Of a stretch of 63,661 nucleotides of DNA, positions 1,903 to 57,106 are shown one piece after another. Both the position numbers and the translations under genes were made by a program. Each line of letters begins with the position of its first letter. The stretch's first letter is position 1. The DNA lies in assembly GCA_910585935.1 (NCBI GenBank), contig CAJUHN010000001.1, forward strand, positions 1 through 63,661. Reading direction: 5' to 3'. This DNA is from an uncultured Lachnospiraceae bacterium (lineage in GTDB: Bacteria; Bacillota; Clostridia; Lachnospirales; Lachnospiraceae). The notes below the pieces were generated by a model. The model saw only the letters and a list, made by a program, of their open reading frames with translations, did not search any database and had not been told where the DNA came from.

Positions 1903-2304
1903 TTAATATCTAGTTCTTTGATTTTCTATATATCCTTTTATAATATCCTCACTCACCATTTCAGCAGTTGATACAAAATAATTTCTAGTCCATAAACTGG
2001 GCATTTTTGATAGTATTTCAAATTCCTCCCTTAAAATTTTACTTGTATACCCCTTAATATCTTTCATTATATTAGATGGACTCTGTGTAGGCAAACAATT
2101 TAAAAACATATAAGTATGATCCTTCTCACATCTTATTTCTAAAATTTCTATCTCTAGCTCCTCACATTTTATTGTAACTAATTCTTTAAATCGTTCTTCT
2201 ACACCCTGTATTAAAAATATTTTTCTTCTATATCTAGGGCAAAAAACAAAATGATAATTTATCATAGATATTGTTGTATTTGTATGTTTATATTCTTTTT
2301 TCAT
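1903..2304 (-). CDS. tnpA: IS200/IS605-family Y1 (HUH) transposase TnpA homologue
   Basis: 133 aa with the YHFVFCPRYRRK block, SLWTRNYFVST and the C-terminal catalytic-Tyr block KGYIENQ. The HUH position reads DHTYMFL rather than D-H-[IV]-H. Confidence 0.85.
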   Translation of the reverse strand: MKKEYKHTNTTISMINYHFVFCPRYRRKIFLIQGVEERFKELVTIKCEELEIEILEIRCEKDHTYMFLNCLPTQSPSNIMKDIKGYTSKILREEFEILSKMPSLWTRNYFVSTAEMVSEDIIKGYIENQRTRY

Positions 2305-2364: not shown

Positions 2365-2533
2365 CTTTGACCAGAGGTTCGCATCGAGAAGAAAGTATTC
2401 CAACGAAACCTCGCTTTCGCTCCGTTCCAGACGTAACGGACACTAAATTCGCAGCCCCTAACAGGACTGCTCATTAAGTGCCGACGTCTTCCAAGGGGTT
2501 TCTTTTGGAATACTTTCTTCTCGATGCTAGTTT
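2365..2533 (+). repeat. Structured intergenic repeat, copy F1 (forward sense)
   Basis: CTTTGACCAGAGGTTCGC ... GCTAGTTT. The outer helix GCATCGAGAAGAAAGTATTCC / GGAATACTTTCTTCTCGATGC pairs 21/21, and the conserved core is CCAACGAA..CGCTCCGTTCCAGACGTAA..ACTAAATTCGCAG..CTCATTAAGTGCC.ACGTCTTCCAAGGGG. Confidence 0.9.
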
Positions 2534-2592
2534 ATCACATAGGCAAATTTATAAAATATCATAATCGTTATTAGGTTATAGTAGCTACTTTT

Positions 2593-2653
2593 CAACGAAT
2601 CATGAAAGGTTATCACACCCTATTATGAAAATAAAAATCTATTTTCGTAGCAA
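2593..2653 (-). repeat. 61-bp module shared with 7895-7956 (opposite orientation relative to the flanking doublet)
   Basis: The reverse complement reads TTGCTACGAAAATAGATTTTTATTTTCATAATAGGGTGTGATAACCTTTCATGATTCGTTG. It differs from the 7895-7956 copy at 2 positions. Confidence 0.85.
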
Positions 2654-2687
2654 TGTACAAAAATAAAGAAATCCCAGAATAGCCAAA

Positions 2688-2845
2688 AAACTAGCAAAGG
2701 CAAGGAATAATTCCAAAAGAAGCCCCTTGGAAGACGTCGGCACTTAATGAGCAAACCCATAAGGGTTCGCGAATTTAGTACCGCTACGTCTGGAACGGAG
2801 CGAAAGCGCGGCTTCGTTGGAATATTCCTTGCCGCCGCGAACCTT
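2688..2845 (-). repeat. Structured intergenic repeat, copy R1 (reverse sense); forms doublet 1 with F1
   Basis: AAACTAGC ... GCGAACCTT. The outer helix is GGCAAGGAATAATTCC / GGAATATTCCTTGCC and the apical hairpin variant is GCAAACCCATAAGGGTTCGC. Confidence 0.9.
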
Positions 2846-2926
2846 CCACTAAAATGTTCTCCTAACTAAATTTATTATAATAAAAAATTCTACCTATCGG
2901 AAAATAAAACCGATAGATAGAATCTC

Positions 2927-7319: not shown

Positions 7320-7487
7320 TTGTTTTTCTCCTATTTTATCTTCAAAATTTTTTCTTTTTTATTCTTTGTTATAACAGAAGAACAAATATTTATATAAATG
7401 TAAAAATAGTAATTACTCCTATTATATACCATCAGTCTAATTTTGCAACCTTTTTTTTAATAATACATCAAAAATGAATTAGTATTT

Positions 7488-7655
7488 AAGGGTTTCCGCA
7501 TAGGGAAGAAAGGATTCCAACGAAGCTGCGCTCTCGCTCCGTTCCAGACGTAATGGTACTAAATTCGCAATTCCCGCTTCTTGCGGGTTTGCTCATTAAG
7601 TGCCGACGTCTTCCAAGGGGCTTCTTTTGGAATCCTTTCTTCCCTATGCTAGTTT
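7488..7655 (+). repeat. Structured intergenic repeat, copy F2
   Basis: AAGGGTTTCCGC ... GCTAGTTT. The outer helix GCATAGGGAAGAAAGGATTCC / GGAATCCTTTCTTCCCTATGC pairs 21/21, and the apical hairpin is CCCGCTTCTTGCGGG. Confidence 0.9.
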
Positions 7656-7894
7656 TTGACCCTTCTACTTTTTATATCTATCATAATTTCCATCTTTAAC
7701 CTTATCGCCGTTCATACTCTACCATTGTAAAATGGGGGGATTTTTTTATTCTACTGGAAGTAAAAAATTCTATGCGTCACATAATTTAAAAGAATATATT
7801 CTTAACCTATTAGTTTTAAAGGATGAGTTAAAACTACAAAACTAACAGTTACCACAACATATATTTTTTGTTATAATCAACAGGTATATGGACG

Positions 7895-7956
7895 TTGCTA
7901 CGAAAATAGATTTTTATTTTCATAATAGGCTGTGATAACCTTTCATGATTTGTTGA
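7895..7956 (+). repeat. 62-bp module shared with 2593-2653
   Basis: TTGCTACGAAAATAGATTTTTATTTTCATAATAGGCTGTGATAACCTTTCATGATTTGTTGA. It contains the hairpin GAAAATA-GATTTT-TATTTTC. Confidence 0.85.
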
Positions 7957-8347
7957 TAATAGTATAATTGTATGTATAGATATATATTTATTTAGGAATA
8001 TAAGCCTTTTTTTATTTTTGATAAGTTCATATTATGAATATGGATGCTGTGAATTACCTATTATCTAAAATCAATGAACTTCGTTCTTTTTAAACTTCAC
8101 AAGCTACTATATCCACAGATGTTAATATGCGTTGTTTATGTTATACAACGGTTATAATATATCATACTTATATAGATATCACCATAAAAATTCAATTACT
8201 TCAAATTTTCACAATTCCTAATTCATATTCATAATCTGACCTTTCCTCCTATTTTTATAGATCATGTTTTCTCATATCCATTCAGAATAGCAAATAAAGT
8301 TATCATCTATCTGTTATTGAAAATATTTCTATAGTAGAATATTCAAC

Positions 8348-8509
8348 AAACTAGCGCAGGGAAGAACCTATTCCAAAAGAAGCCCCTTGGAAGACGTTGG
8401 AACTTAATGAGCAGTTCCGTAAGGGTCTGCGAATTTAGTGTCCACTACGTCTGGAACGGAGTGGGAGCGCGGCTTCGTTGGAATAGGTTCTTCCCTGCGC
8501 GGAAACCCT
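8348..8509 (-). repeat. Structured intergenic repeat, copy R2; forms doublet 2 with F2
   Basis: AAACTAGC ... GCGGAAACCCT. The outer helix GCGCAGGGAAGAACCTATTCC / GGAATAGGTTCTTCCCTGCGC pairs 21/21. Confidence 0.9.
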
Positions 8510-8635
8510 GCCCCAACTGTAAAAAACCATATTCCTAATAAATAACACAAACAATGAATCAAAATAGTCACACAAATAATAAACTTAAAAATACCTGCGC
8601 ATCTAAAGGCTCTCTATGCGCAGGTATTCTATCAT

Positions 8636-42984: not shown

Positions 42985-43107
42985 TATATTTCAAATTCTC
43001 CTTTCCTAAAAAAGTAAGACTTTTGAGAATCTTAAAAATGTTATTATTATTTATAAAACATCGCTCTTTTAAATTTAAAGTATTATTGTTTTGGGTACAA
43101 ATGAATG

Positions 43108-43269
43108 AAAGGTTCGCAGAGAGAAGGAACGATTCCAACGAAGTCGCGCTCTCGCTCCGTTCCAGACGTAGTGGACACTAAGTTCACAGCCCGTAATCGG
43201 TCTGTTCACTAAGTGCCAACGTCTTCCAAGGGACTTCTTTTGGAATTCGTTCCTTCTCTCTGCTAGTTT
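43108..43269 (+). repeat. Structured intergenic repeat, copy F3
   Basis: AAAGGTTCGC ... GCTAGTTT. The outer helix is GCAGAGAGAAGGAACGATTCC / GGAATTCGTTCCTTCTCTCTGC with one bulge. The middle helix has the compensated variant ACTAAGT / ACTAAGT. Confidence 0.9.
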
Positions 43270-43376
43270 TTTGTTTTGGCTGGTTTATAAAAAATAATTG
43301 ACATAATCAAATAAAACCTCATTTCATAACGAACTTAACGAACCATCGTGTCTTACAGACTCGCCTATGATATAAT

Positions 43377-43533
43377 CTAGCGCAGGAACTCCTCTATTCC
43401 GAAAGAAGACCCTTAGAAGACGTTGGTACTTAATAAGCAGTCCTGTTAGGGGCTGCGAATTTAGTACCGCGTAGTCTTACACGGAGCGGGAGCGCGGCTT
43501 CGTTGGAATAGAGGAGTTCCTGCGCGAACCTTT
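43377..43533 (-). repeat. Structured intergenic repeat, copy R3 (most divergent core); forms doublet 3 with F3
   Basis: CTAGC ... GCGAACCTTT. The outer helix GCGCAGGAACTCCTCTATTCC / GGAATAGAGGAGTTCCTGCGC pairs 21/21. Confidence 0.85.
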
Positions 43534-43939
43534 CGCCAATTTCTTCCCACATCCACAAATGTTTGAATCGTGAAAAAATGTATTTTATGGAAAATTCATG
43601 TAGACTTTTTATCATATAAGAGGTAAAATATAATAGAATTTGTTTGTGCAAAAAGTCTTACCTTTTTGCATATCTAAAAATCTAATATAGTACCTTATAT
43701 ATCATCCAATATCTATAAACAAAGTAATAACTTTCGTAAACTATTATTCAACTTTTCTATTATTATCATGAAATTCTCTTTTCAAAAAGCAGAAAAATCA
43801 ATCAATTATTACATCATTATATTAATTTTTGAGTAAACTATAGCCTTATGAATGATTCTATATCATAAAAATAAAACATATAAATGTTGTTTTATTGATA
43901 ATATAGTTTTACTTGATTATTAATAGTATAATAAAGTAT

Positions 43940-49942: not shown

Positions 49943-50108
49943 CTTTGACCAAAGGTTCGCACGGCAAGAAATTTTCCAACGAAGCCGCGCTTTCGCTCCG
50001 TTCCAGACGTAACGGTACTAAATTCGCAGCCCCTAACAGGACTGCTCATTAAGTGCCAACGTCTTCCAAGGGGCTTCTTTTGGAATAATTTCTTGCCTTA
50101 GCTAGTTT
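49943..50108 (+). repeat. Structured intergenic repeat, copy F4 (starts 22 nt after the yfhO stop)
   Basis: CTTTGACCAAAGGTTCGC ... GCTAGTTT. The 5' flank matches that of F1, and the apical hairpin is GCAGCCCCTAACAGGACTGC. Confidence 0.9.
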
Positions 50109-50261
50109 ATTCGTTATTCTAGAGAAAAAATATATTATTTCTTGTTGGATTTTTTAATTATTTTATAGACTTATAAAAAAATATAAATATTATTTCAAAT
50201 ACTGTTTCTACTTGAATTTTTTAATTTTTTATCAAAACTGCTTTTTTGTAGAATTATTAAC

Positions 50262-50421
50262 AAACTAGCCCCTGTAAGCACCTATTCCAAAAGAAACCCC
50301 TTGGAAGACGTTGGTACTTAATGAGCGGTGCGGTGACGCGCCGAGAATTTAGTACCACTACGTCTGGAACGGAGCGGGAGCGCGGTTTCGTTGGAATAGG
50401 TGCTTACAGGGGCGAATCTTT
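50262..50421 (-). repeat. Structured intergenic repeat, copy R4; forms doublet 4 with F4
   Basis: AAACTAGC ... GCGAATCTTT. The outer helix GCCCCTGTAAGCACCTATTCC / GGAATAGGTGCTTACAGGGGC pairs 21/21. The apical variant is unique: CGGTGCGGTGACGCGCCG. Confidence 0.9.
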
Positions 50422-50527
50422 TTATCAAAATGATTTGCAAGATATCTTATATACTTAAACTTTGTATTCGTTAGATTTTTATGAAATAAGAATGTATTTT
50501 AATTTACTTATAAAAGGGAGGTTTCAA

Positions 50528-51511
50528 ATGTCTATAAAAGTATCTGTCATTATTCCTGTATATAATTCTGAAAAAACATTAGTTTCCTGTATTGGAAATT
50601 TGGTTCATCAAACATTAACTGACATAGAATTATTATTTGTAAATGATTGTTCCACAGATAATAGTCTTTCTATTTTAAAAAATTGTTCTTCTCAATTCCC
50701 TGATATCGTACATGTTCTTTCTACTCAAGAAAATTTAGGAGCAGGTGGAGCGCGTAATTTAGCTTTAGAAATCGCTAAAGGTGAATATATTGGCTTTGTA
50801 GATAGCGATGATTTAGCAGATACTACCATGTTTGAAAAACTTTATCAAATGGCTGTTTCTGAAAATTATGATATCGTTGATTGTGGTTTTTATTACCAGA
50901 GTAAAGATATAAGTATTCTCTATACTGCAGATGAAGACACACACTTCTTAACAGATACTAAGAGGAATCATTTAATTTGTGGCGGAGGTTATTTATGGAG
51001 CAAATTAATTCGCAGAGAATTGATAGAAAAATATCATTTGCGATTTCGAGAGCATGTTATTTTAGAAGATATGGATTTTCTTATGTATTTATTCGCAGTT
51101 TCTTCTAATATCGGAAATTTGCATGAGGTTCTATATATATATAAAGATTCTCCTTCTTCTGCTTCTAAAGAAAAAGATATGGAAAAGTATTGTAATAATA
51201 TTATGCAGGCTATGAGAGCTATTTATGAAAAGATGCATATACTTCTAAACTATTCCAACATAAAATTATCTGTAGAATATAGTATAATACAATTATATTC
51301 CTATGGTATTAATTGTTGTTTAAAGTATCGTCGTTCCAATAATACTTCTCTTATTTTAAAATATCTTTCTCAATTACGCCATTTAAAAAGAGATTATATT
51401 TCTATAGATTATAAAAATAATCCATATGTGCAAAAAAAGATTCCAGATTTAGATCAAAAATTGATGCAAAAAAATGATATCGATCCTCATATTTTGGTAG
51501 AAAACTCATGA
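50528..51511 (+). CDS. Family 2 glycosyltransferase
   Basis: MSIKVSVIIPVYNSEKTL, VNDCSTDNS and DSDD blocks. I placed the start at 50528 after AGGGAGG; the ORF track start is 50462. Confidence 0.8.
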   Translation: MSIKVSVIIPVYNSEKTLVSCIGNLVHQTLTDIELLFVNDCSTDNSLSILKNCSSQFPDIVHVLSTQENLGAGGARNLALEIAKGEYIGFVDSDDLADTTMFEKLYQMAVSENYDIVDCGFYYQSKDISILYTADEDTHFLTDTKRNHLICGGGYLWSKLIRRELIEKYHLRFREHVILEDMDFLMYLFAVSSNIGNLHEVLYIYKDSPSSASKEKDMEKYCNNIMQAMRAIYEKMHILLNYSNIKLSVEYSIIQLYSYGINCCLKYRRSNNTSLILKYLSQLRHLKRDYISIDYKNNPYVQKKIPDLDQKLMQKNDIDPHILVENS

Positions 51512-56255: not shown

Positions 56256-56794
56256 CGGTTTCTGCTACTAAAAACATGTACAAATAGATACATGATAGAT
56301 GAAATAAATCTCATGATACTGCTTCCTCGTGTATACTTTCATAATCATTTTTGATTTACTAATCACAAACTCTTATACACTCCACAGTCATAATTTCCCG
56401 ACTGAACATCGGTACTTTACCTATTCATACTATGATAGGCTTCATCTATATTTTAGCTTTTCCTTTCCTAAATTTTATTTTTCTTTACCCTTAGTTTTTA
56501 GGGCTTTACTACGGAATTTTAGGTGCTTTTGAGTATATTCACTCCCTATTTTTCCTATTCTTAATTATATAAAATTTCAACAATAAAATAACATTTATGA
56601 TAAAATACTTCTACCGGGGCTTTGGCTTGAGTATTTCATTTCTTATTATTATATAATACATACAGTATAGTATTATATAATATTTATTCATATATGTCAA
56701 CCATTTTTTCTATAATAAACACAATAAAAGTAACAGTTCAGACTTTTTATTTCTTATTGCAAAATTCGCTTTTCAAAAAGTAGAACCATCAACA

Positions 56795-56964
56795 AACGAG
56801 CGAAGGCAAGGAAGTATTCCATAAGAAGCCCCTTGGAAGACGTCGGCACTTAATAAGCAAACCCGCAAGAAGCAGGATTTGCGAATTTAGTGTCCGTTAC
56901 GTCTGGAACGGAGCGAGAGCGCGGTTTCGCTGGAATACTTCCTTGCCACAGCGAACCTTTGATG
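56795..56964 (-). repeat. Structured intergenic repeat, copy R5 (solo) between truA and rplM
   Basis: AAACGAGC ... GCGAACCTTTGATG. The outer helix is GGCAAGGAAGTATTCC / GGAATACTTCCTTGCC. The apical hairpin CCCGCAAGAAGCAGG is related to that of F2. Confidence 0.9.
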
Positions 56965-57106
56965 TTCAAATAGACTAAACTGTTACTAATAAAGTAACCA
57001 TTCCACCTTTTTATTCTATAAATATTATAATATTCACTTTTCAAAAAGTAGAAAAATCTATAGTTATAAATACCTTCTATTATTTAACATTATTAGTAAA
57101 ATTTCG

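Follow-up and report, generated by a model that had tools for sequence, protein, structure and literature searches.

A family of palindromic intergenic repeats arranged in inverted doublets in uncultured Clostridia

The 63.7 kb stretch of DNA analysed here (the window, with a G+C content of about 30%) contains 11 copies of an imperfect palindrome of about 165 nt, ten of them full and one at the window end, and about 100 further copies were gathered from related assemblies. With roughly even confidence, the family can be explained as lineage-specific, non-autonomous, hairpin-forming intergenic DNA repeats, which are of the kind represented by REP/REPIN sequences, Correia-type MITEs and the Bacillus element bcr1. 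As far as could be found the family is undescribed, and it is best placed outside both the REP/REPIN and the MITE definitions because features that define each of them are absent here.

Anatomy and fold of the repeat unit

Two conserved blocks of the repeat are matched 9 and 11 times in the window, against approximately zero matches expected by chance, and a covariance model built on the ten full window copies recovers 11 of 11 (Table 1). Both kinds of match agree with the 11 positions at which an earlier note on this DNA had placed the repeat.

Table 1. Repeat copies and associated features in the window (positions are those of the window)
Feature	Position	Strand	Remarks
tnpA, IS608-like Y1 (HUH) transposase gene	1903..2304	-	Pfam Y1_Tnp; NCBIfam IS200/IS605 equivalog
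c1 (copy first noted)	2368..2540	+	rod helix ~2381-2527; tail T2
c1, strict core 5' block	2397..2435		
c1, apical hairpin	2451..2470		
c1, strict core 3' block	2484..2511		
c2	2681..2851	-	tail-to-tail partner of c1; spacer ~147-166 bp; tail T1
c3	7485..7662	+	covariance-model match
c4	8341..8513	-	partner of c3; spacer ~683 bp
c5	43103..43276	+	covariance-model match
c6	43367..43538	-	partner of c5; spacer ~97 bp; core variant subfamily GTGTAAGACTACGCGG
c7	49946..50115	+	begins ~25 nt past the stop codon of a YfhO-like gene
c8	50255..50426	-	partner of c7; spacer ~144 bp
c9	56787..56965	-	singleton; truA on one side, rplM promoter on the other
c10	61073..61247	+	heads-out pair with c11; ~2.3 kb enclosed
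c11	63588..63661	-	cut at window end; full in L082, 4339-4512
c10-c11 cargo	61248..63587	-	ParE toxin 62804-63103, Phd/YefM antitoxin 63107-63409, small ORFs

The complete unit measures about 190 bp and consists of a short head, the 165-nt imperfect palindrome and a tail of about 22 nt. The length of 160-170 nt given in the earlier note thus describes the rod correctly but not the extent of the unit, as the head extension and the tail lie beyond it. Within the palindrome, a 20-bp outer helix and an apical hairpin vary between copies while their complementarity is kept, and an asymmetric core of about 70 nt is almost invariant (ATTCCAACGAAGCCGCGCTCTCGCTCCGTTCCAGACGTA ... ACGTCTTCCAAGGGGCTTCTTTTGGAAT); in 76 MAG copies the non-consensus share is about 5% in the core and about 25% in the outer helix and apical hairpin. 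Every copy contains TTCCA three times in direct and once in inverted orientation. Two of these boxes oppose each other across an internal loop, beside a GACGT/ACGTC helix in the core, and the core parts, written as RNA (two opposed UUCCA loops, the GACGU/ACGUC helix and a CGCUCUCGC bulge), are identical in Clostridia of 30% and of about 60% GC.

The head extension is semi-conserved and reads GAACAYTTTGAC.AAAGG (GAACAYTTTGAC.AAAGGTTCGC). Of 103 copies, 47 have a tail of type T1 (GCTAGTTTGTTGGCTATTCTAG), and about ten have one of type T2 (..ATCACATAGGCAAATTT..). Head and tail do not appear to pair past the closing GC, matched pairs being no better than mismatched ones and free of covariation, and the extreme ends show only a short (4-5-nt), AGAAC/GTTCT-like inverted motif, AGAAC...(A/G)TTCT. 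Conservation of the flanks is lost within about 25 nt. The copies are thus not pieces from the interior of some larger conserved element, a case that the earlier note had raised.

On the sense strand the rod is followed by TAGTTTGTT, and a local 9-bp hairpin with a T-rich run was flagged within the 3' arm. This terminator-like hairpin makes use of the TTCCA boxes and is not kept in the GC-type copies. No conserved promoter was seen upstream of the head in the aligned flanks, and a TAGAAT sequence on the antisense strand of the tail was dismissed as a promoter since no -35 hexamer supports it. A conserved peptide encoded by the core is unlikely by inspection, because apical indels of variable length shift the frame between copies. 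That the GGA loops of the antisense strand might serve as CsrA-type sites is put forward purely as an idea.

The first-noted copy, c1, folds as a rod (-72.7 kcal/mol, z = -9.6), and its opposite strand folds equally well (-81.8 kcal/mol, z = -9.8). From ten copies RNAalifold predicts 57 pairs, and compensated changes occur in 23 of these. In an alignment of 67 related copies that was fitted to the covariance model and scored without a tree, paired cells reach 94.8% as against 85.1% in shuffles, and double-sided changes affect 35 of the 57 pairs (367 cells), where shuffles have 18 such pairs (101 cells). None of 500 shuffles reaches the observed level, and the margin is very large even so. In slid controls the paired share falls to 40-49%. 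The strength of this covariation shows that hairpin formation matters. The compensated changes by which, according to the earlier note, the helices are kept therefore lie far above both the shuffle and the slide controls, and the layout it described, with a variable outer helix and discrete types of apical hairpin, is found here too, as are the middle-helix changes in the copies at 43108 and 50262.

RNAs that are made from one strand tolerate G:U far better than A:C. In consensus pairs of 108 copies, the mismatches comprise 176 G:T and 142 A:C, and single positions favour opposite strands, with pair position 85/185 showing 40 C:A against 3 U:G. A lean of the G-T pairs towards the GGTTCGC-to-GCTAGTTT sense, which had been noticed in the window copies, is gone when the 108 copies are considered.

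Distribution, doublet organisation and history

A scan of species-representative genomes found at least 54 loci. Most belong to a single uncultured 'Eubacteriaceae' MAG (CANRVK01), whose contigs often end within copies and which shows 96% identity in its overlap with the window (contig L027). At least three of the loci lie in two GC-rich Clostridia MAGs (RGIG4401 and RGIG4436), in which copies are sparse; here CGCTCTCGCTCCGTTCCAGACGTAGCGGCAC and GTGCCGACGTCTTCCAAGGG are identical, the outer helices are others and the fold architecture is the same. A metagenome scan for cores other than the AT type returned one contig, itself of the AT type. Searches of plasmids, phages and viral contigs gave zero matches, and the core sequence had no match in a literature search. 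The comparison with Rfam proposed in the earlier note was run and matched no family: at the gathering threshold no copy gave a match, and in E-value mode the AT-type copies gave chance-level matches only (E >= 0.5) and the GC-type copies none. The view that the repeat corresponds to no catalogued family has thus held up in Rfam, plasmids, phages, viral contigs and the literature. An origin from tRNA or tmRNA was rejected, as the window has no such genes.

All window copies are intergenic, just one copy of the larger collected set lies within an ORF, and the copies sit at operon boundaries. The interval of 34.6 kb between c4 and c5, which holds tightly packed and mostly same-strand genes, has zero copies. 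The arrangement of the copies follows a strict rule, since neighbours up to 1.5 kb apart are '+-' in 37 cases, '--' in three, and '-+' or '++' in none; the same inverted-doublet rule is seen on the covariance-model set. Successive copies on a contig alternate in orientation with hardly an exception, the members of a '+-' pair being near each other and those of a '-+' pair far apart. The tails of a doublet thereby face each other and the heads point outwards, with a median distance of 115 nt to the flanking genes. The orientation of a copy is independent of the direction of the neighbouring gene, as the head-side gene turns a co-oriented 3' end to the copy 61 times and a divergent 5' start 52 times. 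The doublet rule, this independence, and the fixation and inner-block swaps described below are observations that the earlier note had missed.

Doublets enclose 0.1-2.7 kb, and among neighbours up to 1.5 kb apart the spacers measure between 92 bp and more than 1.2 kb. Spacers are mostly unrelated to one another and none encodes a transposase. The long ones contain ordinary genes (a SufB/D-like gene, a methyltransferase and YefM/YoeB in the MAG), and for these reasons they were rejected as autonomous elements. The two copies of a doublet have a similarity of 0.754, compared with 0.736 for random copies; an origin of doublets as inverted duplications was rejected on this ground.

Every window copy that was checked is present in every strain contig retrieved. 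The 96% identical MAG has c7 and c8 in full and c9 at a contig end within the overlap with L027, where the c8 orthologue carries a different apical hairpin, and c1-c4 are also found in a sister species at 92% identity (GCA_021768725.1). No polymorphic or empty site was found among strains in the tnpA, rplM and ParE contexts, where all copies are fixed. Among MAG copies, the pairwise identity averages 80%; for the nearest neighbour the median identity is 91% and the highest value 96%. This bears out the statement that the copies are not recent duplicates. In the nearest sampled relatives (EcfA 79-87% identical), the syntenic ribosomal cluster is without copies. One of them (L088) has rplQ, its terminator, 444 nt and then ecfA, so that rplQ and ecfA are nearly adjacent, and its rplM promoter lies almost directly past truA, with c9 absent. 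In the species of the window, a block made up of c11, the toxin-antitoxin (TA) island and c10 sits at the rplQ-ecfA junction. Judged against this fairly diverged relative, the island has its left junction no more than a few nt from the c11 head terminus and its right junction about 90 nt past the c10 head. As the copies are absent at syntenic sites in relatives, they are insertions, and old ones. A target-site duplication was not found, since in 98 single copies and 21 doublets direct repeats are no commoner than expected, whether the offset is fixed or free; c9 is the only copy with a flanking direct repeat (about 70 nt).

The divergence of orthologous copies between the window and the sister species, from five to seven pairs, is 2.4% in the strict core, 9.4% in the outer helix, 17.7% in the flanking extensions and 28.9% in the inner and apical part. 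The inner part differs by swaps of whole types together with their compensated partners. Such replacement as a block points to gene conversion among copies, by which the core was probably homogenised as well, in which case selection at the level of the host is not required; the slow divergence of the strict core could instead reflect such selection. When the earlier note called the repeat a structure under selection, it was right about the compensated stems but not about selection as the sole route to them, given this block replacement of the inner and apical part.

The IS608-like Y1 transposase gene tnpA has its start codon 60 bp from the c1 head. In the many assemblies that have it, as in the sister species, the gene is found at this locus only, with the doublet on its 5' side, and between the two species it has accumulated ten synonymous and eleven non-synonymous codon changes (dN/dS about 0.35). 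Its protein keeps the catalytic Tyr, while its HUH motif reads H-T-Y. Among solved structures its closest match is IS608 TnpA (E 5e-27); the search also retrieved further transposases of the IS200/IS605 type, but nothing that is annotated as REP-associated. The IS200/IS605 equivalog score and this structure match speak against a RAYT and in favour of an IS608-type relic. The homology to the native upstream region of a related IS is about 52 nt long and ends where the c1 head starts. The left end of the locus is truncated at the c1 head, and there is no space for a right end. A TnpA that is 75% identical belongs, in L068, to an IS with unrelated ends and no repeat copy. Since about a quarter of the window genes have a copy in a flanking spacer, the probability that gene and repeat are adjacent by chance is about 25%. 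The ordinary IS608-type TnpA, the truncated left end and the unrelated ends of the IS in L068 weaken the link between the Y1 gene and the repeat. The gene is a weak candidate for the mobilising enzyme. It may just as well be a bystander, the remnant of an IS that was struck at its left end by the doublet.

Possible origins of the repeats

Under the favoured explanation, the unit would have spread as DNA and a putative trans-acting enzyme would have recognised its folded core. The core being the proposed recognition site would account for a constant centre and variable ends. Insertion would have taken place at operon boundaries without target-site duplication and would have yielded or favoured tail-to-tail doublets able to enclose passenger DNA. 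A single-strand reaction of the HUH/Y1 type, as in IS200/IS605 and REP/RAYT, would fit best because of hairpin recognition, the lack of a duplication and the inverted-only dimers. The copies are now essentially fixed, and their centres would be reshuffled by gene conversion. The repeats may in addition serve the host as boundary hairpins, and an exapted RNA or boundary function on top of a mobile origin would agree with all the results.

A reading at the level of DNA is favoured by the abundance of the copies, their intergenic location, their insertion relative to related genomes and the doublet rule. Further arguments for it are that both strands fold equally with G:T and A:C near balance, that the same core and fold occur with other outer helices in GC-rich Clostridia MAGs, and that a single-locus Y1 gene conserved in the sister species adjoins a doublet. 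The absence of insertion polymorphism and of a clean empty site among close genomes weakens it. The copies also give no sign of current mobility, as none are near-identical (maximum 96%). The conservation pattern is a further argument against this reading, as conservation is highest in the centre and lowest at the ends, the reverse of MITEs with terminal inverted repeats and of REPINs. Furthermore, a doublet is not obviously one transposing unit, since its partners are no more alike than random pairs and the spacers are unrelated.

The very strong covariation and the invariance of unpaired core nucleotides, together with a core that is kept in distant GC-rich Clostridia, would also be expected of a structured RNA with a host function. 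Transcribed within neighbouring messages or by itself, such an RNA could be a terminator or insulator at the ends of operons, a 3'-end stabiliser, an RNase target, or a protein-binding or sponge module acting through UUCCA/UGGAA loops. Consistent with this, the rate of change between orthologues is 4-7 times lower in the strict core than in the outer helix and flanks, the copies lie at operon boundaries, and the 3' arm of the sense strand on its own folds into a terminator-like hairpin with a T-rich run behind it; this hairpin, however, is not kept in the GC-type copies. The head has no conserved upstream promoter, no Rfam family is matched, and the strict inverted-doublet rule has no rationale at the level of RNA. 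As G:U is not favoured over A:C (176:142) and orientation is unrelated to gene direction (61 vs 52), an RNA made from one strand is disfavoured, and a host-function RNA is considered unlikely overall.

The doublet rule itself, with 37 heads-out pairs to none of the opposite kind, is what a cut-and-paste transposon or MITE of the DDE type would produce if the rods were long terminal inverted repeats, a doublet with its spacer the mobile unit and single rods solo ends. Accessory genes are enclosed (ParE/Phd in the window; YefM/YoeB, a methyltransferase and others in the MAG), an indel in a GT2 gene adjoins the head of c8, the extreme ends carry the short inverted motif AGAAC...(A/G)TTCT, and the c11-c10 block was inserted at the conserved rplQ-ecfA junction with one junction at a head terminus. 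The other junction of that island, though, lies about 90 nt past the c10 head, doublet ends are without target-site duplication, the termini are the least conserved part, partners resemble each other no more than random pairs do, and the unrelated spacers hold no transposase. These points make a DDE-type transposon decidedly unlikely. The alternation of orientation along the chromosome, which is near-perfect, would also suit sites for a DNA-binding or site-specific recombination protein, with the alternating orientation delimiting exchangeable modules. On Acinetobacter plasmids, pdif sites delimit dif modules in this way. The modules seen here include toxin-antitoxin pairs, the invariant core contains a dyad-symmetric pair of TTCCA boxes, the c10-c11 cargo differs between strains (an intact kinase gene in place of two short ORFs), and a sub-segment of the c3-c4 spacer is inverted between species. 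No recombinase, however, is linked to the window copies, 165 nt with compensated helices far exceeds what a duplex site needs, and neither the inversion of a whole module nor an exchange between doublets was seen. This possibility is regarded as highly improbable. Integron attC sites, which come as arrays of one orientation with R/L boxes beside an integron integrase, were rejected because orientation alternates and because a Pfam scan of 20 window ORFs revealed no integrase.

Relation to known hairpin repeats and significance

Non-autonomous hairpin DNA repeats, the explanation preferred here, resemble the REP/REPIN-RAYT systems in several respects. Both are high-copy, intergenic imperfect palindromes that form inverted but not direct dimers (PMC3733652, PMC5581495), REP families occurring as head-to-head or tail-to-tail dimers and not as head-to-tail dimers in a paper that does not mention Firmicutes (PMC3733652). 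Both also share a compensated hairpin and the lack of a target-site duplication, and a Y1 gene that is apparently single-copy lies beside copies. As with REPINs, the copies have stayed at the same loci for long, by vertical inheritance, across strains and species. The differences are equally clear. The unit is 165 nt in length instead of 20-40 nt, its centre is conserved and not its ends, the dimer spacing, which may contain genes, ranges from 92 bp to more than 2 kb, the Y1 protein is of the IS608 type and repeat-flanked on one side only, and the host belongs to a Clostridia lineage. The unpaired GTAG/CGTC tag at the foot of the stem is also missing. GTA(A/G) and CGTC do occur within the core, in or beside the GACGT/ACGTC helix, with GTAR half paired.

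Long-hairpin MITEs such as Correia/nemis, RUP, ERIC and Nezha are similar in being about 100-200 bp long, non-coding, intergenic and multicopy with a rod-like fold, and such elements sometimes have promoter or terminator activity (PMC3184786). MITEs are, however, defined by conserved terminal inverted repeats and flanking target-site duplications (PMC3184786), whereas in the present family the terminal helix is variable and a duplication could not be detected. Nor was a parent IS found whose ends match the repeat. The element bcr1 (group A repeats of the Bacillus cereus group) has about 155 bp, shows structure-preserving compensatory changes and was regarded as a special class of mobile sequence (PMC3184786). 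It shares with the repeat its occurrence in Firmicutes, its size and its compensated structure. Compared by description, bcr1 is transcribed and has 5-bp direct repeats, a strain-variable location and two stem-loops, while the element described here has no direct repeats, is fixed and forms a single rod in inverted doublets. With IS200/IS605 and the PATEs derived from them, the likeness lies in single-strand hairpin recognition, which is proposed for the repeat, the lack of target-site duplication and a Y1 gene beside a copy. Those elements are strand-specific and have two distinct subterminal hairpins of about 20 nt in place of one 165-nt palindrome, and the repeat shows no similarity to the ends of the L068 IS with the 75% identical TnpA.

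The repeat family has practical as well as biological consequences. It breaks MAG assemblies, and its copies mark operon boundaries and points of accessory-gene insertion, even within the ribosomal protein cluster. The core of about 70 nt could serve as bait for a protein that recognises it. It is quite unlikely, though worth stating, that the invariant core is a protein-binding or catalytic RNA or ssDNA motif selected at hundreds of loci and that the heads-out doublets delimit, and perhaps move, accessory cassettes. If this were true, the doublets would be a previously unrecognised system for small accessory cassettes, for example toxin-antitoxin pairs, in Clostridia chromosomes. Hairpin repeats of the REP/REPIN and MITE kind have been described mainly in Proteobacteria, Neisseria, cyanobacteria, streptococci and bacilli. 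A dense family of structured repeats in uncultured gut Clostridia would extend this phenomenon to a new lineage, and would do so under unusual rules, namely a conserved centre, strict tail-to-tail doublets that enclose genes, and swaps of the inner block between orthologues.

Location of the copies and neighbouring gene content

Within the window, the copies of the ~165-nt hairpin repeat (c1 to c11) are restricted to operon boundaries. A 34.6-kb stretch in which genes are tightly packed and mostly minus-strand carries zero copies (coordinates of this and the following features are listed in the table). A family-2 glycosyltransferase gene that the window carries is missing from the MAG contig L027, which is 96% identical to the window, and the head end of c8 adjoins the boundary of this indel. 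The block between c10 and c11 holds ParE/Phd together with small ORFs. Here one strain (locus L083) has an intact gene for a 349-aa protein kinase, at a place taken up by two short ORFs in the window strain. In the IS608-like TnpA the HUH motif reads H-T-Y, a substitution also present in the TnpA of the sister species (GCA_021768725.1) and in a 75%-identical TnpA on the phage-like contig L068, which has a TnpB-like gene as well.

Coordinates of the features discussed in this part
Feature	Window position (strand)	Position in other locus
IS608-like TnpA	1903-2304 (-)	
9-bp 3'-arm hairpin	2489-2510, 2711-2732, 50064-50085	
71-75-nt shared sequence	2589-2659 (-), 7886-7960 (+)	
~98-nt inverted piece	8040-8137	L063 1944-2041
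Copy-free stretch	8514-43102	
Glycosyltransferase gene	50462-51511 (+)	
RAGATH-18 match	56316-56388 (-)	
Region around c9 with ~70-nt direct repeat	56570-57060	
ParE/Phd and small ORFs	61743-63409 (-)	
Protein kinase gene		L083 5805-6854

Copy c9, the rplM upstream region and the 3' arm

The sole unpaired copy in the window, c9, is also the only one with a ~70-nt direct repeat (TTCTACTTTTTGAAAAG[T/C]GAAT...) on both sides. A ~300-nt stretch that separates the rplM start codon from the conserved L13-leader region is wholly missing from the relative L088; in the window it contains a match to the Rfam family RAGATH-18 (48.7 bits; gathering score 44.9). From the conserved 3' arm of the repeat alone, a 9-bp hairpin (TTCCAAGGGGCTTCTTTTGGAA) can form as a competitor of the rod fold; it relies on G:U pairs, is followed by a T-rich run, and is not conserved among the copies from GC-rich Clostridia MAGs.

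Spacers of the doublets

A 71-75-nt sequence (TTGCTACGAAAATAGATTTTTATTTTCATAATAGG.TGTGATAACCTTTCATGAT) occurs twice, at 93% identity, in the spacers of different tail-to-tail doublets, with no further occurrence among the retrieved loci except in same-species contigs. Compared with the sister species, the c3-c4 spacer of the window has two extra segments of ~202 and ~166 nt, and a ~98-nt piece is inverted between collinear flanks. The inverted piece is possibly an invertible segment.
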